Shown here piece by piece: positions 9,900 through 27,163 of a DNA stretch of 51,103 nucleotides. The position numbers and the translations under genes are program-made. The notes under the pieces are model-generated. The model saw nothing but the letters and a program-made list of their open reading frames with translations. It searched no databases and was not told where the DNA came from. This DNA comes from Gemmatimonadota bacterium. Its GTDB lineage: Bacteria; Gemmatimonadota; Gemmatimonadetes; Gemmatimonadales; GWC2-71-9. The stretch is taken from the NCBI GenBank assembly GCA_036679645.1, contig JAZDCY010000007.1, positions 1 to 51,103 of the forward strand, read 5' to 3'. How positions within the stretch are numbered: the stretch's first letter is position 1; each line of letters begins with the position of its first letter.

Positions 9900-9927
9900 T
9901 CGCTCATGGGATCGACTCTCGGCACCT

Positions 9928-10030
9928 GACGATTTGCGATTGCCAATTTGCGATCGGCGATTGGCGAATGCGGCAGGTCAGACCACCAATCGCAGATCGT
10001 ACATCGCCAATCGTCAATCGCCGATCGTCC
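9928..10030. repeat. Heptamer inverted-repeat hairpin
   Basis: gacgatttgcgattgccaatttgcgatcggcgattggcgaat ... caatcgcagatcgtacatcgccaatcgtcaatcgccgatcgtc. Confidence 0.75.
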
Positions 10031-10081
10031 CGACGCGTTGAGGTCACATGAACGGAATGATTCCTTGGTGGGAGGCAATCC

Positions 10082-12967: not shown

Positions 12968-15592
12968 ATGAGTGACGTAGCGGAGCGTCTATCTACGGCC
13001 GTCGCCGATCGCTACGAGATCGAGCGCGAACTAGGCGCCGGCGGCATGGCCACCGTCTATCTCGCACACGACGTCAAGCACGACCGCAAGGTCGCGCTCA
13101 AGGTGTTGCGCCCCGAGTTGGCGGCCGTGATCGGCGCCGAGCGGTTCTTGCAGGAGATCAAGGTCACGGCCAACCTGCAGCACCCGCACATTCTCGCATT
13201 GCACGACTCGGGTGAGGCCGACGGCTTCCTGTTTTACGTTATGCCGTTCGTGGACGGCGAGAACCTGCGCGACAAGCTCGATCGCGAGAAGCAGTTGTCG
13301 ATTGAAGATGCGGTCGGGATCACGCAGGCAATTGGCAGCGCACTCGAGTACGCGCACGAGCGCGGCGTGATCCATCGCGACATCAAGCCCGAGAACATCC
13401 TCATCCATGCGGGCCAACCCGTCGTTGCCGATTTCGGAATCGCCCTTGCGGTGAGTGCCGCCGGTGGCACGCGACTCACGGAAACGGGTCTCTCGCTCGG
13501 CACACCGCACTACATGAGTCCTGAGCAGGCCATGGGCGATCGCGAACTGGATGCCCGCAGCGACATCTACTCGCTCGGCTGCATGGTATACGAGATGCTC
13601 GTGGGCGAGCCGCCGTATACAGGGCCCACGGCGCAGGCGATCGTCGCAAAAGTCATTACCGAAGAGCCACGGCAGTTGACGTTGCTGCGCCGGACGGTGC
13701 CGCCGCACGTCGAGGCCGCGGTGCACAAGAGCCTCCAGAAGCTCCCGGCCGACCGGTTCGATTCCGCGGCGAACTTCATCGATGCGTTGACCAATCCCGC
13801 CTTCGCCACGGCGATTACGCCGGCTGGCAAGGCATGGTTGACCGGCGTCCTCGGCCTGGTGGCGCTCGTGGCCGTAGCCCTCGCGCTCTGGGGCTGGCTG
13901 CGACCCATCCCGGCGCCTGTTACGCGCGTCAGCATTTCGCTGCCGGAGGAGGAAGCGTTGCAACCCGCCCCCACCATCCGTTTCGTCCTGAGCCGCGATG
14001 GATCCCGGGTCGTCTACACGGGTCCCGGGGACAACGGCCACCAGCTGTGGGTGCGCGAGCTGGACGCGCTGCGCGCCCGGCCTCTGCCGGGGACCGACGA
14101 CGCGCAGGCGCTCTCGCTCTCACCTGACGGCATGTCGGTGGCGTTTACCGATGCCAATGCCGGCAGCCTCCGAGTCGTCCCGATCGACGGCGGGCCGGCG
14201 CGCACGATCGTGAACGAGGCGGTGAGCCCCTGGGGCACCGACTGGGGTAGCGACGGCATGATCTACTTCAGTGGCCAGAACGGCGGGCTGCGGCGCGTCC
14301 CGGCAGATGGCGGGCCGGTGGAGGCGCTGAGCGAGCCGGATTCCGCGCGCGGGATCTCGGAGCACGACTGGCCACAACTCCTCCCTGGGGCGCGGGCCGC
14401 GCTAGTGGCCGAGTGGCGTGGCGCGGTGTCCGACGTAGTGATCAGCGCCGTCGTGCTCGAAACGGGCGAGGTGCGACCCATAGCAGATGCGGTCTATGCG
14501 CGCTTCCTGGAGCCCAACCACCTAATCCTCGCCACGAGCGACGGAACGCTCAGCGTGGCGCCGTTCGACGTCGAGCGGCTCGAGCTGACGGGTCCCCCAC
14601 GCGCGATCGTCGAGGGCATCCGCATCGAGAGCAACAGCGGGGCGGCAGAGTTCTCCGTGTCAGGATCCGGAACCCTCATCTACCAGGGCGGCAGCGCCAT
14701 AAAGAATGAAGTGGTCTGGATCGACCGTGAGGGCACGTCAACGCCCATGGACTCGACGTGGCGGGCGGACATCGGCACGTTGGCGCTTTCGCCCGACGGC
14801 ACACGGTTGGCCGTAAGCATCATCGACACGGAAGGGGAGCATATCTGGGTAAAGCAGCTCGACCGTGGGCCACTGACTCGGCTCACCTTCGACGGGGGTC
14901 AGAACTATCGTCCCGCCTGGAGCGTGGACGGACGGGACATCGTCTTCCTGAGCAACCGGACCACAGGGCAACGCGAGATCTGGATCAAGCGGGCGGACGG
15001 CAGCGCACCGGCCGAACTCTTGATCCACGATGTCAGGCCGCTCGACGAGGTAGAGCCCGTCGGCGATGGGGAGTCATTCGTGTTTCGACGTGGCAGCGGC
15101 GGGGTCAATACTCGCGACCTGGCGGTGATCCGGCCCGGCATCGATACGGTGGCGACCTCATTGGTCGAGACGCGCTTTGACGACTATGCCCCGGCGCTGT
15201 CGCCGGACGGGCGGTGGCTGGCGTACGTCGCCAACGAATCCGGGAGCCAGGATGTGTACGTACGTCCGTTCCCGGAGACGGCGAGCGCGCGGTGGCAGGT
15301 GTCTGTGGGCGGTGGGTCCGAGCCTCTATGGGCGCCGAGTGGTCGTGAACTCTTCTACCGCACGCGGAGCGGCGGCGTGATGGCGGTCGCGGTCACGCCG
15401 GGTCCAACGTTTGCTTACGGGACACCTCAGCTGTTGTTCAGCGACCCCGGGTACGAGACGCACCTGTACCACTCGCTTTGGGACGTGTCCTCGAACGGTG
15501 AGCGATTTGTCATGGTGCGTCGTGAAGGGGCGGAGCGGTCGGACCTGGTGCTCGTGCTGAATTGGCGGCAGGAGCTGGAGAGAGCGAGATGA
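12968..15592 (+). CDS. Membrane Ser/Thr protein kinase with TolB/PD40-like propeller; paralog 4
   Basis: GAGGMATV, HRDIKPEN, DFG, GTPHYMSPEQ; TM helix; SPDG repeats. Confidence 0.93.
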   Translation: MSDVAERLSTAVADRYEIERELGAGGMATVYLAHDVKHDRKVALKVLRPELAAVIGAERFLQEIKVTANLQHPHILALHDSGEADGFLFYVMPFVDGENLRDKLDREKQLSIEDAVGITQAIGSALEYAHERGVIHRDIKPENILIHAGQPVVADFGIALAVSAAGGTRLTETGLSLGTPHYMSPEQAMGDRELDARSDIYSLGCMVYEMLVGEPPYTGPTAQAIVAKVITEEPRQLTLLRRTVPPHVEAAVHKSLQKLPADRFDSAANFIDALTNPAFATAITPAGKAWLTGVLGLVALVAVALALWGWLRPIPAPVTRVSISLPEEEALQPAPTIRFVLSRDGSRVVYTGPGDNGHQLWVRELDALRARPLPGTDDAQALSLSPDGMSVAFTDANAGSLRVVPIDGGPARTIVNEAVSPWGTDWGSDGMIYFSGQNGGLRRVPADGGPVEALSEPDSARGISEHDWPQLLPGARAALVAEWRGAVSDVVISAVVLETGEVRPIADAVYARFLEPNHLILATSDGTLSVAPFDVERLELTGPPRAIVEGIRIESNSGAAEFSVSGSGTLIYQGGSAIKNEVVWIDREGTSTPMDSTWRADIGTLALSPDGTRLAVSIIDTEGEHIWVKQLDRGPLTRLTFDGGQNYRPAWSVDGRDIVFLSNRTTGQREIWIKRADGSAPAELLIHDVRPLDEVEPVGDGESFVFRRGSGGVNTRDLAVIRPGIDTVATSLVETRFDDYAPALSPDGRWLAYVANESGSQDVYVRPFPETASARWQVSVGGGSEPLWAPSGRELFYRTRSGGVMAVAVTPGPTFAYGTPQLLFSDPGYETHLYHSLWDVSSNGERFVMVRREGAERSDLVLVLNWRQELERAR

Positions 15593-15657
15593 GTGCAGAG
15601 TGCAGAACGATTGACCTAATCTGCAATCTGCAATCTGCAATCAGTAATCTGCAATCC
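15591..15657. repeat. Heptamer tandem runs (GAGTGCA, AATCTGC)
   Basis: gagtgcagagtgcagaac ... aatctgcaatctgcaatctgcaatcagtaatctgcaatcc. Confidence 0.75.
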
Positions 15658-15725
15658 TTATGTTGTGGATGAGACCAGGCACCACTGGAACATTGCTGCC
15701 CTCTGAGGCTATGATTAGCCGTCAC

Positions 15726-16073
15726 ATGTCGGGTACTACTCGTTTCCCGTCTCCCCGCCGTCGCGCGGGTGGCATTGCGGTCGGGCTGTTCTACCTGTTC
15801 ACCGCCGCGGTCCTTCCCACGCTCCACGCCGAAACCGAGGGCCTGCTCGGCACGCCTCACGTCGAGGACGGCCACTCCGCCCAGTGCGACCGAATCCATG
15901 ATGACGCAAGCTGCCCGGTCACCGGTGCGTTCCGCTCGGTCGCGCCTGCCCGCACACCGGTCATACGTGCCGAGAACGAGCTTCTGGTTGCTGCGCCCCC
16001 CGCAACGTGGCATCGTCCGCCCACCACCCCGGAGACCGGCCCTCCCGCCGCTCGCGGACCGCCGCCGGCCTGA
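15726..16073 (+). CDS. Putative metal-responsive leader / ribosome-arrest peptide (DUF2946/CruR-like architecture)
   Basis: N-terminal hydrophobic helix (IAVGLFYLFTAAVLPTLH), His/Cys cluster HVEDGHSAQCDRIHDDASCPV, Pro-rich linker, C-terminal ARGPPPA-stop; lies directly before a metal-uptake operon. Confidence 0.7.
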   Translation: MSGTTRFPSPRRRAGGIAVGLFYLFTAAVLPTLHAETEGLLGTPHVEDGHSAQCDRIHDDASCPVTGAFRSVAPARTPVIRAENELLVAAPPATWHRPPTTPETGPPAARGPPPA

Positions 16074-16150
16074 TCCCACACAGATGTAACTCTCACGCCG
16101 ATGTCCCACTGGGCCATCGGTCGGCGTGCCATGTGTTTGGATCAGGAAGG
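16069..16150 (+). promoter_or_regulatory. Predicted mRNA hairpin pairing the leader stop region with the SD of the next gene
   Basis: cctgatcc (16069-76) pairs with ggatcagg (16139-46); acaca (16078-82) with tgtgt (16132-36); cacgccga (16094-101) with tcggcgtg (16121-28). SD aggaagg is at 16144-16150. Confidence 0.6.
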
Positions 16151-16154
16151 TATT

Positions 16155-17417
16155 ATGCGAATAACCGGTTTCATGCCGTTGCTGCTCGGGATCGCCCTTG
16201 TGCACCCGATCGCGGCGTCGGCCCAGCAGCAGCCCCGTACGCGCGCGGACTCGCTCGAGTTGGAGATCCAGCGGCTCAAGGCTCGTATGGACTCGCTCGA
16301 GCAAGCCATCCAGCGGCTGCTGGCTCAGGGTCAGGACACCGCCACTGCGGGTGACGAGTTGGCAGCGCTCCGAGCCCGCGCCCGGGTTGCGGCGGGCCCA
16401 CGTGACACTACCAGACGTACCCCGCAGCCGAGCGTGTCCCGGACGCGCAACCTCAATCGACTGAATCCCGAGATTAGCATGACCGGCGACGTGCGGCTCC
16501 AATCGAATCCGGATATGGCGGCGGAAGACAACGTCGCAGTACGCGAGTTCGAGTTCAGTATCCAATCCGTGCTCGATCCGTTTGCCAGCACGAAGGTCTT
16601 TCTCACCTTCGAGGACGGCGCGATCGATCTGGAGGAGGGGTATCTCTACTGGACTGGCCTGCCGGGGCACTTGCGCGTGGATCTCGGTCGCCTGCGACAG
16701 CAGGTTGGTGAGCTGAATCGCTTTCACCTGCACGCGCTTCCGGAGACGGAGTACCCGCTCGTCTATCGCGAGTATTTTGGCGAGGAAGGGTTGATCGGTG
16801 ATGGACTGCGGGTGTTCTGGCTCGTACCCACGAGCGGCGTGTTCGGCGTCCAGGAACTCACGCTCGAGGGAACGGTCGGGAACAACGAAGTCCTCTTCGA
16901 TGGTGGCAACCGGGCGTCGATCCTCGGCCACCTCAACAACTTCTTCGAACTGTCACCTGCGGTCTTCGTCCAGGTTGGGGGAACGGCCGTATATGGCAAG
17001 AACCCCGATATCGATCTCGAGACGCTGCTCGTGGGCGGGGACGTACGGGTGTCGTGGCGTCCGCCGTCGCAGGCGCAGTACCGCTCGTTCACGTTGCGCG
17101 CCGAGGGATACTTCCTCGACAGGGAATTCGCTGGTCTTGGCGACGCGCGGTTCGGGGGCTTCCTCGGTGCCGAGTACCAAGTCAGCCAGCGGCTGTTCTT
17201 GGGGACGCGCGCAGACTACGTCGAGCCCATCGTCGGTGATCGGGCCACGTGGGGGATCGCACCCCATCTCACATGGTGGCAGAGTGAGTGGGCGTATCTC
17301 CGTGCGGAATGGCAACACGAGCAAGTTCCCGCCCTCGGTGGCGGCCGTGATGGGCAAGACAGACTCTCGCTGCAGGTCGTCTGGGCGGTGGGTCCCCACA
17401 AACACGAGACATACTAA
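16155..17417 (+). CDS. Outer-membrane beta-barrel protein of the metal (Zn)-uptake-associated type
   Basis: Signal peptide, N-terminal coiled coil, NPEISMTGD, RFHLHALP, alternating aromatic beta strands, His-containing C-terminus GPHKHETY; aggaagg RBS. Confidence 0.75.
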   Translation: MRITGFMPLLLGIALVHPIAASAQQQPRTRADSLELEIQRLKARMDSLEQAIQRLLAQGQDTATAGDELAALRARARVAAGPRDTTRRTPQPSVSRTRNLNRLNPEISMTGDVRLQSNPDMAAEDNVAVREFEFSIQSVLDPFASTKVFLTFEDGAIDLEEGYLYWTGLPGHLRVDLGRLRQQVGELNRFHLHALPETEYPLVYREYFGEEGLIGDGLRVFWLVPTSGVFGVQELTLEGTVGNNEVLFDGGNRASILGHLNNFFELSPAVFVQVGGTAVYGKNPDIDLETLLVGGDVRVSWRPPSQAQYRSFTLRAEGYFLDREFAGLGDARFGGFLGAEYQVSQRLFLGTRADYVEPIVGDRATWGIAPHLTWWQSEWAYLRAEWQHEQVPALGGGRDGQDRLSLQVVWAVGPHKHETY

Positions 17418-18487
17418 TGACAAGACGCGTGATGCACATGGTGGCCGCCGTGGTCGTGTTGGCTACGACGATTCCCGTCGGTGCGGCCGCACAGAACAGG
17501 GTGAACGTCGTTACGTCTCTGAGTACCTACGCGGCGATCGCGCGCGAGATTGCCGGTGACCGCGCAGAGGTGCTCTCGATCGGCCGGGGTGATGAGAACC
17601 CTCATTTCGTGCAGCCGCGACCCAGTCTGGCGCTCCGGCTGCAGCGGGCAGATCTCTTCGTGGCCACGGGTCTCGATCTCGAACTCTGGGTACCGGCCCT
17701 GTTGGACCGTGCCAATAATCCGCGTGTGAGGGAGGGTGGTCCCGGGTACGTAGCAGCCTCCACCGGTGTCGAGTTGTTGGATGTGCCTACGTCGGTGAGC
17801 CGCTCGGGGGGAGACATCCACGCGTTCGGGAATCCGCACATCTGGGCCGATCCCGTGAACGGCCTGCAGATCGGCCTGAACATTCTTGCAGGTCTGCAGC
17901 GGGTCTCGCCCGAGAACGCCGACTACTTCCAGCAACGCTATGACACGTGGCGCATCGCGCTGCTGCACGCCCTCGTCGGCGAAGAATTGGTGACTCTGCT
18001 CGGCTCCGAGACAGTGGAGGACCTCGCCGTACAGAACGCCTTGTGGAGCTTCGTCCACGAGCAGTCCTACGAGGGGCGTCCTCTGGCCGAGCGTCTCGGG
18101 GGATGGCTCGGCGAGGCGGCAATCTTCCGCGGACGAGATATTGTCTGCTACCACAAGGAGTGGGACTACTTCTCGCGTCGGTTTGAAGTTCCCTGCGCGG
18201 ACTTCGTCGAGCCCAAACCGGGCATCCCGCCCACACCCGGACACGTCGCGAGTCTCATCCGCCGCATCCGTACAGAGGAAATTCCGGTTGTCTTCTCGGC
18301 GAACTTCTACAACCAGAACCAGGTGCGCACGATCGCTCGTCGGACCGGCGCACGCCCGGTGATCGTACCGGCGAATGCGGGCGGGGCCCCGGGCGCTGAG
18401 AGTTACATCGGCATGGTGTCCCTGTGGGTCCGCGACCTCGCGACGGCGTTCCGCGCCGCTGACGCGGAAGCGGGGAGACACCCATGA
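17417..18487 (+). CDS. Metal ABC transporter substrate-binding protein (ZnuA/TroA, cluster A-I)
   Basis: Signal peptide; DENPHF, GNPHIW, YH and EPKPGIPPTPGH motifs; start overlaps the upstream stop. Confidence 0.88.
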   Translation: MTRRVMHMVAAVVVLATTIPVGAAAQNRVNVVTSLSTYAAIAREIAGDRAEVLSIGRGDENPHFVQPRPSLALRLQRADLFVATGLDLELWVPALLDRANNPRVREGGPGYVAASTGVELLDVPTSVSRSGGDIHAFGNPHIWADPVNGLQIGLNILAGLQRVSPENADYFQQRYDTWRIALLHALVGEELVTLLGSETVEDLAVQNALWSFVHEQSYEGRPLAERLGGWLGEAAIFRGRDIVCYHKEWDYFSRRFEVPCADFVEPKPGIPPTPGHVASLIRRIRTEEIPVVFSANFYNQNQVRTIARRTGARPVIVPANAGGAPGAESYIGMVSLWVRDLATAFRAADAEAGRHP

Positions 18488-19317
18488 GCATGATCGACCT
18501 GCTCCCCCTGATGGTTGCGCCGTTCGCCGCGGCGATGGTGCTGGTGGGAATGCTCTCCTATCTCGGCGTCCACGTCATCGCGCGCGAAGTGATCTTTGTC
18601 GATCTCGCGTTGGCGCAGATGGCGGCGCTGGGAGGGACCGTCGGTTTGCTGTTCGGTCTGGAACCCGGCACCGGCGGTGGGTATGCCTTTGCCCTCGCCG
18701 CCACTACACTCGGCGCGTTCATCTTTGCGATGACACGCAGCACCGGCGGCGAACGCCGCGTACCGCATGAAGCGATCATTGGTGTCGTGTATATCGTGGC
18801 GTCAGCCGCCGTGATCCTGGTAGCCGACCGTGCACCACGCGGCGCCGAAGTGCTGGAGGAGACGCTCGTGGGCACGATCCTGTGGGTATCGTGGCCGACG
18901 ATCGTGAAGCTGCTCGGCGTGTACGTGGCGATCGGCATATTCCATTGGTTTTTCCGCCACCGGTTTCTCACGATTTCGCTGCGACCCGATACGGCGCAGC
19001 AAGAAGGATGGTCGCTACGCTGGTGGGATTTCTTGTTCTATCTCTCGTTCGGTGTCGCGATCACGTTGGCCGTGCCCGTCGCGGGCGTGCTGCTCGTGTT
19101 CACGTTTCTTGTCGTTCCGGCCATTGTGGCGTTCCTCTTTACACGCCGCACAGGCGCTTTGCTCGCGATCAGCTGGATCACGTCGGCGATAGCCTCGGCA
19201 TTGGGACTCTTCGTGTCGTTCCGTTTCGACCTGCCGACGGGACCGGTGATCGTGTGTACGTTCGGCGTCGTGCTGCTGGTGGTGGGTGCCGTGCGGAGGT
19301 TCCTGCCGCAGGAGTAG
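18484..19317 (+). CDS. Metal ABC transporter permease (ZnuB/ABC-3 family)
   Basis: Highly hydrophobic; LGVHV..R..IFVDLALAQ and GVLLVFTFLVVPA motifs; ATGA overlap. Confidence 0.85.
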   Translation: MSMIDLLPLMVAPFAAAMVLVGMLSYLGVHVIAREVIFVDLALAQMAALGGTVGLLFGLEPGTGGGYAFALAATTLGAFIFAMTRSTGGERRVPHEAIIGVVYIVASAAVILVADRAPRGAEVLEETLVGTILWVSWPTIVKLLGVYVAIGIFHWFFRHRFLTISLRPDTAQQEGWSLRWWDFLFYLSFGVAITLAVPVAGVLLVFTFLVVPAIVAFLFTRRTGALLAISWITSAIASALGLFVSFRFDLPTGPVIVCTFGVVLLVVGAVRRFLPQE

Positions 19318-19324
19318 GCCGGAT

Positions 19325-19398
19325 GATTGCAGATTGTAGATTAGGGATTGCAAATCGGATCGATAGATCTGCAATCTGAAATCAGTAATCTGCAATCA
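19325..19398. terminator. Heptamer inverted-repeat hairpin between convergent genes (possible bidirectional terminator)
   Basis: gattgcagattgtagattagggattgca ... atctgcaatctgaaatcagtaatctgcaatc; no U-tract is seen. Confidence 0.5.
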
Positions 19399-19424
19399 GG
19401 GGCCGGGGGCGGAGGGGGAACCGG

Positions 19425-21374
19425 CTACCAGTACCCCAGCTCACCTCCGCAGGTCTCGGCCGCGCCGCCTTTGCCGAAGACGACGCGGAGCGCCATTGCC
19501 AACAGGCCTCCCTCCGTCCGTGCCTGTTGGCCAAACCAGCCGTACTGGAAGAAGTCGAACAACGCCTCGTCGCTGGGGCGCCGCACGAGCGAGGCCCGTG
19601 CTTCATCGAGCCACCGATCGTAGTCTTCGCCCGGACCGAACACGACGTCGTAGAGATTGAAGCACCGCGCAAAGGCGTTCGCGCCGAGAAACGCCTCCCA
19701 CCGCAGCCCGCGGACAGCGGTCGTGTCGAGGGCAATTCGAGGGAACGCGCGCAGCAGGTCGCCGAAGTTGTCGGACACACCGCGTATGTCGCTGAGTGTC
19801 TCGACGTGTTTTACGGATTCCAGTACCCAGGCAAGTGCCGCGGCATCGCTCGTGCGTCCGGATGCGCGGTAGAGCCCTTCGAGTGCCGTCCCGGCGCGGC
19901 GCACCATGACCGTTCCGATCAGGTTGTCGATCAACGTCGGTCCCTCGTCGATCAGGAGAAAGCCCGTCGTCAGGACCTCACGGATAGTCTGCTCGGCCAT
20001 CTCCGGTCGCCCGTCGAGGAACTCCACCGCAGCCTTCGCTACGTGCGCCTGGGCGCCGCGCCGGATGTGAGAGAAGCGGGGAATCGACAGGGTAATCGGA
20101 GACGCTGAGTCCGGCAGAGGCAGGTTATAGCGTGCACTCACGATGTCCGCCGCTGCGGCACGGCCCACGACTTCCCATTCGCTGTGGGCGGGGTGCGACG
20201 CAATTACACGCAGGGCCGCGCGCTGGTCGCGGTTCATCCCCGCGAGCTTATCGAACAACGAGTCCACGTTGGCGAGGGAATCCAGTTCCGGTGGGAACCA
20301 CGGATCGTCGTAGACCGTAACGGGTCCCAGTTCGTCGAACCCGGGCTCGCTCGGCCTGTTGAGCCAGATGAGGTTGTGCAGCGCCTGCCCCGCCGCTTCG
20401 GCGGTAATCGCGGGATCAGGCTCCAGCCGCTCCCGCCGCAGCGCATCGGCCACGGCGATCCTCGCCTGTAGGCGCGAGAAGCTCGGGACGGCGATCGACG
20501 CCACGATAGGTCCCAGCGCGCTTGTGAACGCGAGCGTCGCCGTCGGGATCAGTATCCCCGCGGCGACGACGATCGTTGCGATCAGGGCCCAGCGGAATTC
20601 GCCAGGGGCCGGTCTCGACCCGGCATGGAAGCGGATACCCCGACGCGCAGCGGCTATCCCAACGTTCCATTGCCCGATCTGCGCGCGTAGCTCCTCATCC
20701 GCTGTCGCGCGTGCCTCCCCGTCTCGCCGGGCGCTGCGGCGAACCGCCGCATCCTGGAGCGCACCGCCTAAGCCGATGGCCACGAACCCGAGCGGAATCA
20801 CGACCGTGACGATGCTGACCATTGCCGGACTCAGCACGCCCCGCGCTGCCAACACCACGCTGAACGCGAAGCCGAACGGGACCCACAGGACGGCGGCGAG
20901 AAACGCGAGCGTTCCCACCACGCGCGTGGCGAGGACCGTGTCACGCTGACCCGGTGTGACGTGCCGGTAGAGTCGCGCACCCTGGAGCACGAAACCGGTG
21001 TCGCGCGGTCCGTCGGTGATGACCTCGAGAATCGTGCCGCGATTGTGTCCCCGCTTGCTTGCACGGGTGGCGCGGAAGAGGAGCTTCGTCAGCATCTCGA
21101 AGCCGAACAGGAACACGAGGAGGCCGAGTGCCGAACTGACGAGCAGGACCCACCAACTCTGTCCGAAGGGGCCGAGACTCCAGGCACCGCGCTCAGAGCC
21201 GACCGACCAGAGCAACGGCCAGATCAGAACGACGTCACCGAGAGCGAACGTTAGGATGATCGGCCAGATCCTGGCGTGGAGGCTCTCGAGGCCGGGCGGC
21301 GGCCAGGCCAAGAGGGGAGGTTGGGACGGCTGGGGCGGGGAGGACGACGGGGAACCAGTTGCGCTGTCGGTCAT
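19425..21374 (-). CDS. Hypothetical multi-pass membrane protein with large C-terminal helical extracytoplasmic region
   Basis: Long ORF with about five TM segments in the N-terminal half. Start set at MTDSATG (21374); the longer ORF would reach the divergent kinase start. Confidence 0.75.
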   Translation of the reverse strand: MTDSATGSPSSSPPQPSQPPLLAWPPPGLESLHARIWPIILTFALGDVVLIWPLLWSVGSERGAWSLGPFGQSWWVLLVSSALGLLVFLFGFEMLTKLLFRATRASKRGHNRGTILEVITDGPRDTGFVLQGARLYRHVTPGQRDTVLATRVVGTLAFLAAVLWVPFGFAFSVVLAARGVLSPAMVSIVTVVIPLGFVAIGLGGALQDAAVRRSARRDGEARATADEELRAQIGQWNVGIAAARRGIRFHAGSRPAPGEFRWALIATIVVAAGILIPTATLAFTSALGPIVASIAVPSFSRLQARIAVADALRRERLEPDPAITAEAAGQALHNLIWLNRPSEPGFDELGPVTVYDDPWFPPELDSLANVDSLFDKLAGMNRDQRAALRVIASHPAHSEWEVVGRAAAADIVSARYNLPLPDSASPITLSIPRFSHIRRGAQAHVAKAAVEFLDGRPEMAEQTIREVLTTGFLLIDEGPTLIDNLIGTVMVRRAGTALEGLYRASGRTSDAAALAWVLESVKHVETLSDIRGVSDNFGDLLRAFPRIALDTTAVRGLRWEAFLGANAFARCFNLYDVVFGPGEDYDRWLDEARASLVRRPSDEALFDFFQYGWFGQQARTEGGLLAMALRVVFGKGGAAETCGGELGYW

Positions 21375-21581: not shown

Positions 21582-21680
21582 CGGCCGCGGATGATCGCTA
21601 AGAGCGCGGATGGTCCCGGTATGCAAACGGCCGCCCAGACACGGTGCGTATCCGCGTCCGCAACAATCAATCCGCGGCCG
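21582..21680. repeat. Inverted-repeat element directly upstream of kinase 5
   Basis: cggccgcggat (21582-92) / atccgcggccg (21670-80), with inner cgcggat/atccgcg; homologous to 12882-12963. Confidence 0.8.
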
Positions 21681-21685
21681 CACCC

Positions 21686-24397
21686 ATGAGCGAAATCACC
21701 GAGCGTCTTACCTCTGCCATCGCCGACCGCTACCGCATGGAGCGCGAAATCGGGGCGGGCGGTATGGCGACGGTGTATCTCGCGCACGATGTCAAGCACG
21801 ACCGCAAGGTTGCGGTGAAAGTGCTGAGGCCGGAGCTGTCGGCCATCATTGGTGGCGAGCGGTTCCTCAACGAGATCAAGGTCACCGCCAATCTCCAGCA
21901 TCCCAACATCCTCCCGCTCTACGATTCGGGCGAGGCCGACTCGTTTCTTTACTACGTGATGCCCTACGTGGAGGGCGAGACGCTGCGGGCCAAGATGGAT
22001 CGGGAGAAGCAACTTACCGTAGAGGAGACGCTCGAGATCGCCAAGTCGGTGGCGGCGGCACTCGACTTCGCGCACCAACACGGCGTCGTGCATCGGGACA
22101 TCAAGCCCGAGAATATCCTGTTTCAGGGTGGCCAGGCATTGGTGGCCGACTTCGGTATCGCCCTCGCAGTTAGCGCCGCAGGAGGAACGCGACTCACCGA
22201 GACGGGACTGTCCCTCGGCACGCCCCATTACATGAGTCCGGAACAGGCCGCCGGCGATCGTGAGATCGATGCACGCAGTGATCTCTACTCGCTCGGGGCG
22301 ATGATATACGAGATGCTCACGGGCGACCCGCCACACACCGGCAATACGCTCCAGGCAATCGTGGCCAAGGTCCTGACCGAAGAGCCGACACCCATCACGC
22401 GCACGAGAAACCTCGTGCCGACGAACGTCGATGCCGCCGTGCAGCGCGCCCTGGCCAAGACGCCGGCAGATAGATTCGCGGGCGCCGCCGAGTTCGCCGC
22501 AGCGCTGTCCAATCCCGCGTTTACGATTGCCACGATGGCAGCGCCAGCGGGCACACGGCCGCCGTCGCCGTTGTGGTCGCGCAGGAGTCTCGCGAATTGG
22601 CACGTGGCGCTTGCCGTCGTCGCGGCGCTCGCAGTTGGCCTAGTGGTGGGGAGGGCGCCAGGTGGCGACAGCGCGCCTATGCCTGGTCCCGTCGCCCGTT
22701 TCACGTTTGGTGTGCGGCTGGGGGATATCGATTTTGGTTCGGGCGTGGCGCTCTCACCCGACGCGAGCCAGCTCGTCTACATCGGTCCCGGCGAGCGCGG
22801 TGGCTCGCGCCTCTTCCGCAGGACGATGGGTGAGTCGGATGCCGCCCCGGTTGCCGGGACGGCCGGGAGCCTGGTCATGACCCCGTTCCTCTCTCCCGGC
22901 GGAGAGATGCTGGGATTCTACGCCGACCAGCAACTCCGAGTCGTACCCGTGGCCGGCGGCGCCGCGCGACCGCTGGCACCGATGTCCCCGACGAGCGGTG
23001 GCGGCAGCTGGGGACCAGACAACCAGATCGTGTACGAGCCGAGTTTCGGGTCTGGGCTCATGGTCGTCTCGGCAGACGGCGGGGATCCCAGGTTCTTGAC
23101 CGTACCCGACACTGCGGTGGGAGTGCTCGATCATCGGTGGCCACATGTCCTACCCGACGGCAAGTGGATCGTGTTGACGATCTGGCGCGGCGCGTTGGAT
23201 CTGGCCTCCATCGGCATCGCCTCGATGGAGACCGGCGAGGTGCGGGAGCTGATGCCGGGGAGTGACGCGCGCTATGTGGATGCGGGCTACCTCGTCTACG
23301 CCGTGCCCGAGGGCGCCCTGCGAGCCATCCGGTTCGATGCCAAGAGCGGCGAGGTGAGGGGTTCTCCGGTCACGGTGCTCGACTCGGTGCTGGTACGCGG
23401 GGACGGCGCGGCGCACTTCGCCGTGTCGCGCAGCGGCACGCTCGCCTACCTCGGCTCGTTGGGAAGCCGAATCCCGGTTATTGTCGACCGCAGCGGGATC
23501 GTGACACCACTCCCGATGGATCCGGGTGACTACGGGGCGCCGCGCTTCGCACCCGACGGGCGTGCTGTAGCCGCGGGGTACCAGGGCGATGTCTGGATCT
23601 ATGACTTCGATCTTGGCACGTTCGGTCCGCTGACGGCCGGTGGAGGGTTCTATCCCGTCTGGACGCCCGATGGGAGACACATCCTGTTCTCCAGAACGGA
23701 GGGACCCGACGTCAACGTGTATCGCGTCCCAGCCGACCGAGGTGAGGAGCCGGTGGCGCTTCTGCAGGCTCGCGGGCAGCAACGGACCCAGGACCTGAGC
23801 CCCGACGGCTCGCACCTCATGCTGCGGCGGAACCTGGTGAGCCCCGGGCGGCCGGCGTTTGCCGAGCAGAGCGCGTCTGCTGGAGCCGGTGGACGGTTGG
23901 GGATGGCCGGTGGACAGTACGACCTCTGGTCGCTTGCGCTCGAAGACGGTGCCGAGCCCGAGCCGTGGCTCACGTCGGACTTCATGGAGCGCTCGCCCAC
24001 GTTTTCACTCGATGGGCGCTGGGTCGCGTACTCGTCGAACGAGTCGGGCAGAGACGAGGTATATGTGCGGCCGTTTCCCGGGCCGGGCGGACGCACGCAA
24101 GTTTCTACCGAAGGCGGGACGGCTCCGGCGTGGTCACCGGACGGCTCCGAGCTGTTTTATCGGATCGGCGACGAATTCAAGGTCGTGGCGGTGCAATTGG
24201 CACCGACGTTTCGTGTGGTCAGTCGTGCGCGCACGCTCTTCGAGGGGCGCTACTATGCCTATCCGTGGCAGCGGCAATACGACATCCATCCAGACGGCGA
24301 TCGGTTTATCATGTTCAGGTATACCGAGGAAGAGACGGATCTGACGGCGGTCGTGAATTGGCTCGAATCCGTGCGGCATCGCTTGGAGGGGGAATGA
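21686..24397 (+). CDS. Membrane Ser/Thr protein kinase with TolB/PD40-like propeller; paralog 5
   Basis: GAGGMATV, VAVK, HRDIKPEN, DFG, GTPHYMSPEQ; TM helix; propeller repeats. Confidence 0.93.
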   Translation: MSEITERLTSAIADRYRMEREIGAGGMATVYLAHDVKHDRKVAVKVLRPELSAIIGGERFLNEIKVTANLQHPNILPLYDSGEADSFLYYVMPYVEGETLRAKMDREKQLTVEETLEIAKSVAAALDFAHQHGVVHRDIKPENILFQGGQALVADFGIALAVSAAGGTRLTETGLSLGTPHYMSPEQAAGDREIDARSDLYSLGAMIYEMLTGDPPHTGNTLQAIVAKVLTEEPTPITRTRNLVPTNVDAAVQRALAKTPADRFAGAAEFAAALSNPAFTIATMAAPAGTRPPSPLWSRRSLANWHVALAVVAALAVGLVVGRAPGGDSAPMPGPVARFTFGVRLGDIDFGSGVALSPDASQLVYIGPGERGGSRLFRRTMGESDAAPVAGTAGSLVMTPFLSPGGEMLGFYADQQLRVVPVAGGAARPLAPMSPTSGGGSWGPDNQIVYEPSFGSGLMVVSADGGDPRFLTVPDTAVGVLDHRWPHVLPDGKWIVLTIWRGALDLASIGIASMETGEVRELMPGSDARYVDAGYLVYAVPEGALRAIRFDAKSGEVRGSPVTVLDSVLVRGDGAAHFAVSRSGTLAYLGSLGSRIPVIVDRSGIVTPLPMDPGDYGAPRFAPDGRAVAAGYQGDVWIYDFDLGTFGPLTAGGGFYPVWTPDGRHILFSRTEGPDVNVYRVPADRGEEPVALLQARGQQRTQDLSPDGSHLMLRRNLVSPGRPAFAEQSASAGAGGRLGMAGGQYDLWSLALEDGAEPEPWLTSDFMERSPTFSLDGRWVAYSSNESGRDEVYVRPFPGPGGRTQVSTEGGTAPAWSPDGSELFYRIGDEFKVVAVQLAPTFRVVSRARTLFEGRYYAYPWQRQYDIHPDGDRFIMFRYTEEETDLTAVVNWLESVRHRLEGE

Positions 24398-24493: not shown

Positions 24494-27163
24494 ATGAGCG
24501 AAATCACCGAACGCCTCACCAACGCCATCGCCGACCGCTACAAGATCGAATCCCACCTGGGCCAAGGTGGGATGGCCACCGTCTATCTCGCGCACGACTT
24601 GAAGCACGACCGCAAGGTCGCGTTGAAGGTGCTGCGTCCCGAACTCGCGGCCGTGATTGGCGCCGAGCGGTTCCTGCAGGAGATCAAGGTCACGGCGAAT
24701 CTACAGCACCCCAACATCCTGGCGCTCTACGACTCGGGCGAGGCGGACACATTCCTGTACTACGTGATGCCGTTCGTGGAAGGGGACACGCTGCGCGACA
24801 GGCTCGACCGCGAGAAGCAGCTTGGGGTGGACGATGCGATCGAGATCACCAAGAGCGTCGCGGCCGCGCTCGACTACGCGCACCGGCACGACGTGATCCA
24901 TCGGGACATCAAGCCCGAGAACATCCTGCTGCACGACGGGCAGGCGCTGGTGGCGGATTTCGGGATCGCACTGGCGGTCTCGGCGGCGAGTGACAACCGG
25001 TTGACGGAGACAGGGCTCAGCCTCGGCACGCCGCACTACATGAGTCCCGAGCAGGCAATGGGCGACCGCGAGCTGGATGCGCGCAGCGACGTCTATTCGC
25101 TGGGTGCGATGCTGTACGAGATGCTGGCCGGCGATCCGCCGTACACCGGCAGCACGGCGCAGGCGATCGTTGCGAAGGTGATCACCGAGAAGGCGACCCC
25201 GGTGACCGCCGTGCGCGACACGGTGCCGAGTCACGTTGCCGCGGCAATTCACAAAGCGCTGAACAAGCTGCCGGCGGACCGGTGGCACAGCGCCGCCACC
25301 TTTGCCGAGGCGCTCACGAAGCCGGGAATGGCGGAGCTTCCCGTCACGGTCGCCGCCGAGGCGGGCGCCGCGCCCAAGCAGCGCAACTGGGCGTTCCTCG
25401 GCGCGGCTGCTGTTGCGCTCGTTGCTATCGCCATAGCGCTGTTCGGCCTGCTGCGGTCCGGGCCACCACCGCGAGTGGCACGGTTCACCGTCGCTCTGCC
25501 AGAGGCACAAGGTATACGCGACCGCTTCGCCAACACTATCGCGCTTTCGCCCGACGGTTCGCGGTTCGTCTACGTAGGCCCGGGGGAGAGCGGAGCACAG
25601 CTGTGGCTCCGGGAAATGAATCAGCTCGAGGCGATGCCAATCGCCGGTACCGAGGGGGCGTTCGCGCCGTTCTTCTCCCCTGATGGTCAATCGGTCGCAT
25701 TCTTTACCCGCATTCTCGACGCGTCGTTGCGCGTCGTTTCGCTTGCGGGCGGTCCGCCGCTCACGTTGGCTACCGAAGGGCTGTTCGCGGCCGGTGGCTC
25801 ATGGGGAGACGACGGCTACCTCTACGTGGTAGGCGAAAGAGACGGTGGATTGGAGGCGATCGTGCGGGTGTCGTCCGCCGGAGGCGACCCCGCAGCCGTC
25901 GCCGAACCGGACAGCGCCGCTGAGCGCAATTTCTTCTGGCCGGAAATCCTGCCCGGGGGGAAGAGCGTGTTGGTCACGACATGGCCGAGCGGGGGAGCCA
26001 ACAACAGCGACGCGGAGATTGCGGTCGTCTCGCTGGTGACCGGAGAAGTCACGACGATCCTTCAGGGGACTACGGCCCGCTACGCCGACCCGGGTTTCAT
26101 CGTCTACGCACGTGGCGATGGTGCGCTGCTCGCCGCGCCGTTCGACCCCGGGAGGCTCGAGGTCACCGGTCCATCGACACCGCTGCTCGAGGGGATTCTC
26201 ACCAAGCTCCCCGCGGCGGCCGAGTTCTCGATTGCGCAGGACGGGTCGCTCATGTACCTGAGCGGGGAAGCCGGGTCGGAGCAGATCGTGTGGGTGGAAC
26301 GCGATGGTGGCGAGCGGGCCATCGATGCCGAGATGAAGGAGAATTTTTCGTCGCTGGCGCTCTCGCCCGAGGGCGAGCGGATCGCGGTGTCGTACATAAG
26401 TGAGTCGGGTCAGAACATCTGGATTTACGATCTTGCACAAGCCACGCTCTCCCGACTGACTTTTGGCAGCGATTACAACCAACGTCCGGAGTGGTTGCCG
26501 GGCGGGCGGGAAATCACATTCGTCTCGACGGAGACTCCGCCGCGACAGCTGTTCACGATGCCAGCGGACGGTAGCGGGTCATCTCAGCAGCTATTCGCTA
26601 CGGACGCGGTCGTCCAGGAGGCGTCGTGGTCCCGGGACGGCCGCTATCTGGTGTACCGCAGGGGGCCCGGTGGTGGCAGCACTCTACGGGACATCCTGTA
26701 CTTGGAACGGGGTGACACGACCCAGCGGACGTTTCTCGCCACCGAGTACGACGAGCTGAACCCGAAGATCTCGCCTGATGGGCGCTGGCTCGCGTACGTC
26801 TCCAACGAGTCCGGTCGCGACGACGTGTACGTGCGACCGTTCCCGGGACCTGGAGGGCGCTGGCAGGTTTCGACCGACGGGGGTACCGAGCCGTTGTGGT
26901 CGCACGCGGGCCGAGAGATCTTCTACCGCAGCCCCGACGGCAACCTCGTCAGTGCCGCCGTGACGATCGGAGAGACGTTCTCGGTGGGGCAGCGCACGGT
27001 GCTGTTCTCTATGGCGGAGTACGACGCCGATCGCACGCACACGTTCTACGACATCTCGCCAGACGATCAGCGGTTTCTCATGGTCAAGCAGAGCGGTGGG
27101 ACGCGGGACGTGGTGGTGGTGCTCAACTGGTTTACGGAAGTGTTGGAGCGGATGGGAAAGTGA
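24494..27163 (+). CDS. Membrane Ser/Thr protein kinase with TolB/PD40-like propeller; paralog 6
   Basis: GQGGMATV, HRDIKPEN, DFG, GTPHYMSPEQ; TM helix; SPDG repeats. Confidence 0.93.
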   Translation: MSEITERLTNAIADRYKIESHLGQGGMATVYLAHDLKHDRKVALKVLRPELAAVIGAERFLQEIKVTANLQHPNILALYDSGEADTFLYYVMPFVEGDTLRDRLDREKQLGVDDAIEITKSVAAALDYAHRHDVIHRDIKPENILLHDGQALVADFGIALAVSAASDNRLTETGLSLGTPHYMSPEQAMGDRELDARSDVYSLGAMLYEMLAGDPPYTGSTAQAIVAKVITEKATPVTAVRDTVPSHVAAAIHKALNKLPADRWHSAATFAEALTKPGMAELPVTVAAEAGAAPKQRNWAFLGAAAVALVAIAIALFGLLRSGPPPRVARFTVALPEAQGIRDRFANTIALSPDGSRFVYVGPGESGAQLWLREMNQLEAMPIAGTEGAFAPFFSPDGQSVAFFTRILDASLRVVSLAGGPPLTLATEGLFAAGGSWGDDGYLYVVGERDGGLEAIVRVSSAGGDPAAVAEPDSAAERNFFWPEILPGGKSVLVTTWPSGGANNSDAEIAVVSLVTGEVTTILQGTTARYADPGFIVYARGDGALLAAPFDPGRLEVTGPSTPLLEGILTKLPAAAEFSIAQDGSLMYLSGEAGSEQIVWVERDGGERAIDAEMKENFSSLALSPEGERIAVSYISESGQNIWIYDLAQATLSRLTFGSDYNQRPEWLPGGREITFVSTETPPRQLFTMPADGSGSSQQLFATDAVVQEASWSRDGRYLVYRRGPGGGSTLRDILYLERGDTTQRTFLATEYDELNPKISPDGRWLAYVSNESGRDDVYVRPFPGPGGRWQVSTDGGTEPLWSHAGREIFYRSPDGNLVSAAVTIGETFSVGQRTVLFSMAEYDADRTHTFYDISPDDQRFLMVKQSGGTRDVVVVLNWFTEVLERMGK

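Follow-up and report, generated by a model that had tools for sequence, protein, structure and literature searches.

A candidate ribosome-arrest leader of the CruR/CutF class heads a probable zinc-uptake operon in Gemmatimonadota

Introduction

In the literature that we found, copper is the only metal for which sensing by a stalled nascent chain has been demonstrated, with the proteins CruR and CutF. CruR (Bp2923) of Bordetella pertussis belongs to the DUF2946 family (PF11162); its first cysteine, C90, precedes R139 by 49 residues, and the stalled ribosome has been proposed to act by blocking Rho (PMC9426467). According to the same paper, no riboswitch is known for copper or zinc. The peptides with RAPP/RGPP arrest motifs include ApdA, ApdP, ApcA, SecM and a set from Streptomyces. 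The arrest of CruR takes place at its pair of Pro codons; across four peptide contexts, arrest was most robust with RGPP, and RAPP leaders are also found upstream of DsbA and thioredoxin genes (PMC12992588). In CutF of Rhodobacter capsulatus, copper increases stalling and a stem-loop over the next ribosome-binding site melts; a disulfide model has been put forward for this protein (bioRxiv 2025.02.05.636593). The survey of CutF-like proteins by Ozturk et al. contains His-only as well as mixed His/Cys clusters, not all of which are considered copper-specific, and it suggested in 2023 that His-rich CutF-like leaders might be sensors of metals other than copper (PMC9973294). Nascent chains reach SecYEG approximately 45 residues from the peptidyl-transferase centre (PMC7886326).

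Here we analyze a candidate leader of this class and the operon behind it in a stretch of Gemmatimonadota DNA of 51,103 nucleotides, which is referred to in full as the window.

Results

Anatomy of the leader reading frame

A sequence-only reading of the window had described a 115-aa ORF with an export segment, a His/Cys site, a Pro-rich spacer, an RGPP motif and a gap of 81 nt to the next gene, all of which we confirmed on the sequence (Table 1). The N-terminus of the translated protein is Arg-rich, and the potential ligands follow the pattern H34-x10-H45-V-E47-D-G-H50-x3-C54-x3-H58-x4-C63. Between C63 and RGPP lies a Pro/Ala/Thr-rich stretch, and RGPP is followed by two residues and then TGA. 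The 81 nt separate the leader stop from the ATG of the porin gene at 16155, with AGGAAGG at 16144-16150.

The AlphaFold model contains a helix at residues 10-38, with a pLDDT of ~96 across residues 11-30, but no globular fold (pTM 0.37). The export signal was assessed from hydrophobicity and this model; signal-peptidase cleavage after Ala35, a site read from the sequence pattern alone, is possible. Searches of Pfam and NCBIfam gave no match for the leader protein, and the Rfam search over 15500-19500 returned zero matches and thus no known riboswitch.

Table 1. Positions of the leader, its parts and the genes behind it, with sister leaders of one target type
Feature	Position	Strand	Basis
Predicted -10 hexamer TATGAT, 10 nt before the leader ATG	15710-15715	+	sequence
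Leader ORF, CruR/CutF-like RGPP arrest-type peptide, 115 aa	15726-16073	+	translation, conservation, profile
Hydrophobic export or membrane segment, residues 16-30	15771-15815	+	hydrophobicity, AlphaFold helix
Predicted metal site H34, E47, H50, C54, H58, C63	15825-15914	+	alignment
Spacer variable in sequence and conserved in length; C63 and R110 flank its 46 residues	15915-16052	+	register
RGPP arrest-type motif, R110-G-P-P113	16053-16064	+	sequence, alignment
Predicted long hairpin; basal stem 16069-16076 (leader stop region) with 16139-16146 (start of porin ribosome-binding site)	16069-16146	+	fold
Predicted porin, 420 aa, first downstream gene	16155-17417	+	AlphaFold, Foldseek, profile match
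ZnuA-family substrate-binding protein, three-His site	17417-18487	+	PF01297, E 1e-44
ZnuB-like ABC-3 permease, last gene of the operon	18484-19317	+	PF00950, E 5e-31
Leaders before TolC-adaptor-CusA/CzcA-like operons: L104-L107, L110, L111, L120, L128, L129, L132, L134, L135, L137

The leader is conserved in front of orthologous porin genes

Porin orthologues are present in 89 of 201 Gemmatimonadota genomes. We assembled 95 porin loci, consisting of 26 loci from Gemmatimonadota records, 29 best matches and 40 weaker or more distant ones; 3 lacked upstream DNA and 2 were duplicates, which left 90 distinct loci. These loci are related, and the counts that follow overstate their independence. An R[AGS]PP motif within 12 codons of a stop was found just upstream of the porin gene in 84 of the 90 (73 RAPP, 9 RGPP and 2 RSPP). 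The other six comprise one frameshifted RSPP leader and five loci with another gene in its place. These five loci (L031, L060, L064, L082 and L083) have no Vibrio-type box (see below), and in three of them GTATAC stands shortly before the gene start.

The Arg of the motif is encoded by five different codons (CGC 33, CGA 33, AGA 10, AGG 5 and CGG 4; n=85), and therefore selection acts on the protein. R, P and P are invariant in 79 of 79 aligned leaders. After exclusion of 3 frameshifted leaders from the motif counts, a Cys was found 44-49 residues before the motif Arg in all 82 readable leaders, the window's included, and in 80 of them at 46-49 residues; in the window this is the distance of 47 from Cys63 to Arg110. 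A His lies within 8 residues before that Cys in 74 of the 82, a count that does not depend on the alignment. CxxC is kept in 44 of 82 leaders and an additional upstream Cys in 42. The window's leader has the upstream Cys but has lost the second Cys of CxxC (C63-P-V-T). In the alignment of 79 leaders, column 34 is H, D or E in 70, E47 is present in 60, H50 in 34, C54 in 36 and C63 in 78. A hydrophobic 15-mer of at least 1.6 was found in 78 of 80 leaders.

An R[AG]PP near a stop codon is weak evidence by itself, since the window's genome, with 64% GC, contains 254 six-frame cases; 18% of the R[AG]PP occurrences are no more than 6 codons away from a stop, as compared to 11-14% for the 12 other first residues listed. 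The reality of the leader is instead settled by its conservation in 84 of 90 orthologous loci, and that 15726-16073 is a real, translated leader is close to certain. The sequence-only reading had proposed conservation of His/Cys and of the C-terminal motif across orthologous operons as a check, and the motif counts, the Cys register and the His tally together bear it out.

The ORF could alternatively encode a small exported metal-binding protein that acts in trans, with a Pro tail of no regulatory role, as the signal-like N-terminus and the several potential ligands would allow. Mean column identity among the leaders is only 21%, however, and what has been kept is the ligands and R-x-P-P, while the spacer has a constant length and a changing sequence. 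The lack of a globular fold in the model, the first place of the leader in its unit and the pairing of its tail with the next ribosome-binding site (below) likewise speak against a protein of this kind, which we regard as very improbable.

Family membership

A profile of the leader family matched 2,892 representatives at E<=0.001. Among the best 150 of these 2,892 matches, 142 end in R[AGS]PP, and 113 of the 142 contain CxxC. Matches occur in 157 of 201 Gemmatimonadota genomes. The DUF2946 model (PF11162) gave no match to the window's leader at E<=1; 6 of 19 orthologous leaders matched at E<=1 and 4 of 79 at E<=0.01, the best at 3.6e-5. In one Atlas neighbour cluster, DUF2946 is carried by 11% of the members. 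A search against DUF2946, which had been put forward as a further check, thus connects several of the orthologues to this family at these thresholds but not the window's leader itself. The latter lies outside strict DUF2946 membership, with neither a match to the model nor a CxxC.

The window's leader shares with CruR the Cys-to-Arg spacing, an N-terminal export signal and the first place in a metal-related operon. It also falls within the broad definition of CutF-like proteins (PMC9973294), being shorter than 150 aa with PP in its last 15 residues, a signal sequence and a Cys/His site; the stem-loop over the next Shine-Dalgarno sequence within reach of the stalled ribosome is present by prediction. 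Like the RAPP/RGPP arrest peptides, it is a small exported protein with a conserved C-terminal R-[AG]-P-P. The kinship with CruR that the sequence-only reading had seen is upheld: CruR is the closest described protein, and the conserved leader keeps its His/Cys site at a constant spacing from R[AG]PP, with a metal-uptake operon behind it. The accompanying idea that such leaders form a His-rich class of their own, lacking CxxC and linked to Zn/Mn import, is not supported in view of the CxxC in 44 of 82 leaders, the several DUF2946 matches and the occurrence of the Cys arrangements before all target classes (below). Judged by its sequence, the leader is a divergent branch of the CruR/CutF-like class and not a separate class without CxxC.

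The operon encodes a predicted porin, a ZnuA-like protein and a ZnuB-like permease

The genes that had been read as an outer-membrane barrel, ZnuA-like and ZnuB-like were corroborated by a porin model and by matches to PF01297 and PF00950, respectively. The 420-aa barrel has no Pfam match over the cut-off and no match to a TonB model. Its AlphaFold model (pLDDT 82.7) displays 16 strands and an N-terminal helical stalk, and the best Foldseek matches of the model are porins, including VhChiP, OmpT and OprP. The orthologues contain invariant His motifs. The product of 16155-17417 has an Atlas neighbour cluster as one basis for its naming, and its homologues carry the name TonB-dependent receptor. 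A TonB-dependent receptor is a 22-stranded barrel with a plug domain. The 16 predicted strands, the porins as best matches and the lack of a TonB model match speak against that identity for this protein; by its structural model, what is named a "zinc-regulated TonB-dependent receptor" in these operons would be a porin.

For the ZnuA-family protein, alignment to solved structures assigned the ligands H63, H141 and H246, each of which is kept in 85 of 88 orthologues, with no conserved fourth acidic ligand. Three His without Asp as the fourth ligand is the pattern of the zinc-type cluster A-I binding proteins (ZnuA/AdcA). The NCBIfam scores of the protein were all below the cut-off, AztC being best, and it is 28% identical to ZnuA2 of Vibrio campbellii. 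As compared to ZnuA2 and the solved relatives, it has an insertion of ~40-55 residues near positions 180-235; two further His, H135 and H276, are also conserved.

The gene order is stable, with a ZnuA-like gene after the porin gene in 89 of 89 loci and a ZnuB-like gene in each of the 57 loci where the DNA extends far enough. Only 5 of the 57 loci with at least 3 kb downstream show a Walker A motif, and the other 52 have no ATPase gene. The gene at 18484-19317 is the only ABC-3 permease gene found in the window's genome.

Two other features of the surroundings were observed. Short CTGCAAT/ATTGCAG heptamer repeats flank the operon at 15621-15657 and 19324-19395, with similar text near 9900-10050; there are 15 tandem double copies in the genome, and the repeats resemble repetitive elements of intergenic DNA. 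Around the operon lie three paralogous genes for Ser/Thr kinases with C-terminal beta-propeller (PD40) repeats, at 12968-15592, 21644-24397 and 24494-27163.

A Vibrio counterpart points to zinc

The best match of the permease in a plasmid collection was a 2-Mb V. campbellii record, in which this gene trio is again present and an ATPase gene is not. A tblastn search of the same collection with the porin gave nothing. This record (L099, NZ_CP050465.1; 2.06 Mb) is filed as a plasmid and is probably a second chromosome. Its operon shares the lack of an ATPase gene with the Gemmatimonadota loci. The V. campbellii porin matched the porin profile at 99.9% (E 1e-32, 325 columns). Upstream of it stand two perfect TGTTAT-n3-ATAACA palindromes and no leader. 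The palindromes resemble the Zur sites tabulated for Caulobacter (PMC4176598). Among 18 distinct metagenome loci with a Vibrio-type porin, the box was found in 18 and a leader in none; a single RSPP in a frame of 15 residues was not counted as a leader.

In zinc deficiency, omr, znuA2 and znuB2 of V. parahaemolyticus are up 1033-, 543- and 283-fold, and the Zur regulon predicted for V. parahaemolyticus, V. vulnificus and V. campbellii includes such a cluster (PMC9817125); the induction was measured on V. parahaemolyticus genes, and our homology was computed with those of V. campbellii. The Vibrio operon is thus Zur-boxed and induced by zinc deficiency, and the binding protein is of the three-His type, and therefore zinc is the favoured metal, also over manganese. 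The leader probably senses a metal; given that it does, zinc is a likely identity.

The Vibrio-type box, with up to 3 mismatches, was found in only 3 of 85 Gemmatimonadota rows, and the phylum may use another Zur box. No Fur-family gene over the cut-off was found in the window's genome, which is 93% complete. The idea of a genome without Zur in which the leader replaces it was rejected in that form: a Fur-family gene is present in 171 of 201 genomes of the phylum (a tally that includes four unpublished genomes, which enter no other result), among them genomes of the same genus. The Zur-activated efflux operon czrCBA-zntA of Caulobacter begins with a DUF2946 gene (PMC4176598).

The leader is probably first on its transcript

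In 54 of 80 loci, the pattern TAnnnT stands 4-10 nt ahead of a candidate start of the leader, with ~2.2 candidate starts per locus and 5 truncated or frameshifted leaders excluded. The controls gave 0 of 80 for porin starts, 2% for random ATG/GTG and 8.8% for the long ORFs of the window's genome. Within 15560-16200, neither a sigma-70 consensus promoter (-35/-10 scan) nor an intrinsic terminator was found, and a shared palindrome sought around the 54 leader promoters was absent. These patterns suggest that the leader message is probably leaderless or near-leaderless, with the leader first on the transcript.

A stalled ribosome is predicted to free the porin ribosome-binding site

The predicted hairpin between leader and porin in the window folds at -49.8 kcal/mol, although with a z of only -1.76. 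Opening of the porin ribosome-binding site costs 14.9 kcal/mol in the free RNA of the window and 6.6 kcal/mol with the footprint of a stalled ribosome, modelled as a region that is kept from pairing and that extends to 14 nt beyond the first base of the Pro codon in the P site. Over 85 rows, with start codons picked by eye, the mean cost is 12.5 kcal/mol free, 8.0 with the footprint and 10.0 with the footprint shuffled. All 12 footprint shuffles are surpassed in 33 of the 85 rows (~6.5 expected), and the footprint yields a gain above 2 kcal/mol in 60 rows and a loss above 2 in none. When leader ends were swapped between loci, the own end occluded above the mean in 62 of 85 rows and beat all 12 swapped ends in 24; for the window, its own end was equalled in occlusion by 2 of the 12 swapped ones.

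The rare codon CCT, which yields an anti-SD-like CCUCC, is used for the first Pro in 30 of 85 leaders, as compared to 8% in porin genes. In the two lineages compared, the anti-SD sits in different tail codons, and two-sided covariation of the basal stems within lineages is almost absent. The folding models thus make it probable that the stalled ribosome would free the porin Shine-Dalgarno sequence from the hairpin. This predicted output matches that of CutF (bioRxiv 2025.02.05.636593) and not the Rho model of CruR.

The stall might instead act mainly on transcription by blocking Rho, as CruR would lead one to expect (PMC9426467), with the hairpin as a pause site or of secondary importance. The 3' ends of the leaders have C over G in 84 of 85 rows, with a skew of 0.27 as compared to 0.01 in porin genes, which would suit Rho, but this skew is explained by the Pro codons. 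The gaps are mostly 40-135 nt and thus below the 162 nt of cruR, and the pairing between leader end and ribosome-binding site beats both the shuffled and the swapped controls. We consider a mainly Rho-based output quite unlikely, although translational and Rho outputs can coexist.

Sister leaders head uptake and efflux operons

From 40 regions retrieved around further profile matches we obtained 39 usable leader-target pairs away from the porin, L141 being left out since its downstream frame is ambiguous. The targets are 13 TolC-adaptor-RND operons (Table 1) and 26 TonB-type receptors. CusA/CzcA was the best model for 6 of the 7 RND genes scanned, all as partial sequences under the cut-off, the seventh being in the wrong frame; ZnuD was the best NCBIfam match for 12 of the 24 TonB receptors scanned, under the cut-off. 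RNA folding in which the stall opens the next ribosome-binding site was also predicted here, with a gain above 2 kcal/mol in 9 of 13 RND loci, and in 13 of 26 receptor loci. In L128 and L131, two leader-headed units stand in tandem.

Each of the four Cys arrangements is found at the head of porin-ZnuAB, TonB-receptor and CzcCBA-like operons, with unchanged spacing. The possibility that the Cys arrangement marks the target metal was rejected, as the arrangements do not separate uptake from efflux targets. The same leader types and the same RNA logic are found at CzcCBA-like efflux operons, which speaks against a simple reading of the metal and of the direction of its effect. Release of every stall by metal would turn the pumps off when metal is plentiful. 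Either leaders differ in sign, as CruR and CutF do, or the pumps have another purpose, such as a role under metal limitation.

The window's genome contains a second leader, with RAPP (G000:C7:271903-272226 (-), corresponding to L101 1486-1869 (-)). A copA-like gene is followed there by a copB-like gene whose end the leader overlaps, and no intact same-strand gene was seen downstream; this leader is possibly a remnant. Its position behind copA-copB-like genes is a link to copper.

These observations bear on whether the leader of the porin operon is built from the same parts but works with the other sign, the metal strengthening the stall as in CutF, or with Cu, Co, Ni or Mn as the ligand. In CutF, more copper gives more stalling and a melted stem-loop, which is the output predicted here (bioRxiv 2025.02.05.636593); the leaders at CzcCBA-like pumps share the RNA logic, CxxC, the copper motif of CruR, is widespread among the porin-locus leaders, and a paralogous leader lies behind copA-copB-like genes. 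An importer induced by its own metal would make little sense, however, and both the Zur-boxed, zinc-lack-induced operon of Vibrio and the three-His binding protein speak for zinc. On balance we hold this alternative to be unlikely, although it is the one to be taken most seriously. By analogy with CruR, it is rather probable that the metal releases the stall of the porin-operon leader rather than strengthening it.

A different reading is that the leader monitors secretion or the periplasmic disulfide state, in the manner of SecM or ApdA/ApdP, with the His/Cys residues structural or redox-active. An outer-membrane protein is first behind the leader in each class examined (porin, TolC, TonB receptor), and both the RAPP leaders before DsbA and thioredoxin genes (PMC12992588) and the disulfide model for CutF (bioRxiv 2025.02.05.636593) would fit. 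Against this, the site contains just one Cys in 14 of 82 leaders, which can form no internal disulfide, yet His is kept in 74 of the 82. His makes up 8.8% of the residues in the site region, 44-80 before the Arg, as compared to 3.1% of residues 1-43 before it. The targets examined are, in addition, of metal-transport types. A monitor of secretion or redox state is thus improbable, and a metal sensor remains our preferred reading.

Discussion

Proposed mechanism

We propose that the RGPP leader stalls its ribosome when zinc is scarce, which opens the hairpin and switches on porin-ZnuA-ZnuB; for this scheme as a whole we see an even chance. Transcription would start a few bases before the leader ATG, a position read from the sequence that leaves no room for a riboswitch. 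The hydrophobic N-terminus is expected to bring the ribosome to the Sec translocon, and the ribosome would then halt once its P and A sites are occupied by the two prolines, as in CruR and other RAPP/RGPP peptides. By the same analogy, the leader very probably stalls its ribosome. The halted ribosome is predicted to cover the last leader codons, which otherwise pair with the porin Shine-Dalgarno sequence. The predicted His/Cys site would at that point have reached the translocon or passed it, at a distance of 49-78 residues from the peptidyl-transferase centre. Zinc binding may fold this site and pull on the chain, so that the stall is released, the hairpin re-forms and the uptake genes fall silent; we infer this step from the analogy with CruR and from the role of the operon.

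In a wider scheme, zinc homeostasis at these operons of the Gemmatimonadota would rely on nascent-chain sensors instead of a Zur operator, with one leaderless RAPP/RGPP family gating porin-ZnuAB, ZnuD-like receptors and CzcCBA-like pumps by one RNA switch whose sign is set by the sensor segment. We offer this scheme tentatively and consider it somewhat doubtful. If true, the leader would be the first zinc-sensing arrest peptide, extending to zinc a mechanism seen with copper, and the family would be a natural series showing how one scaffold yields both metal-released and metal-induced stalling. The sister leaders on uptake and efflux operons make the question of release versus strengthening directly testable.

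Comparison with known systems

The sequence-only reading had also held that this combination had not been characterised. With respect to experiments this stands, as our literature searches found no zinc-sensing arrest peptide. As an idea, however, non-copper sensing by His-rich leaders was suggested in 2023 (PMC9973294), and a supplementary table from 2025 has rows with RAPP leaders before this porin name, without remark. The supplements of PMC12992588 and PMC9973294 may list the combination, and ZnuA-type neighbours are unnamed in the passages of the CutF-like survey considered here (PMC9973294). What is probably new relative to the literature found is a CruR/CutF-class leader at the head of a probable zinc importer.

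With CruR the window's leader has in common that it heads a metal-import operon, that it carries an export signal and a Cys ~49 residues before a C-terminal R[AG]PP, that few residues remain to the stop and that an outer-membrane transporter comes next. The two differ in the sensor segment, CruR having CxxC and the window's leader C-P-V-T with an upstream Cys and several His and no Pfam match, and in their targets, a copper TonB receptor for CruR and a 16-stranded porin with ZnuA/ZnuB here. The gap to the next gene is 162 nt for cruR and 81 nt for the window's leader. The output proposed for CruR is Rho termination, whereas the predicted output here is the freeing of a ribosome-binding site, and the start of the window's leader is, unlike that of CruR, predicted to be leaderless.

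CutF and the window's leader share an exported nascent sensor, a Cys motif, a Pro-rich end and a Shine-Dalgarno stem-loop that is melted by the stalled ribosome, the last by prediction in our case. CutF differs from the window's leader in its CxxxC, in an EF-P-sensitive PPP at its end, in stalling that increases with copper and in its target, a detoxifying oxidase.

The Vibrio omr-znuA2-znuB2 cluster (PMC9817125) consists of homologues of the porin, binding-protein and permease genes, arranged as they are here and also without an ATPase gene. It has Zur-type boxes and no leader, whereas the Gemmatimonadota operon has a leader and no such box. This contrast between a Zur-boxed operon in Vibrio and a leader-headed one in Gemmatimonadota yields a clean prediction of the ligand.
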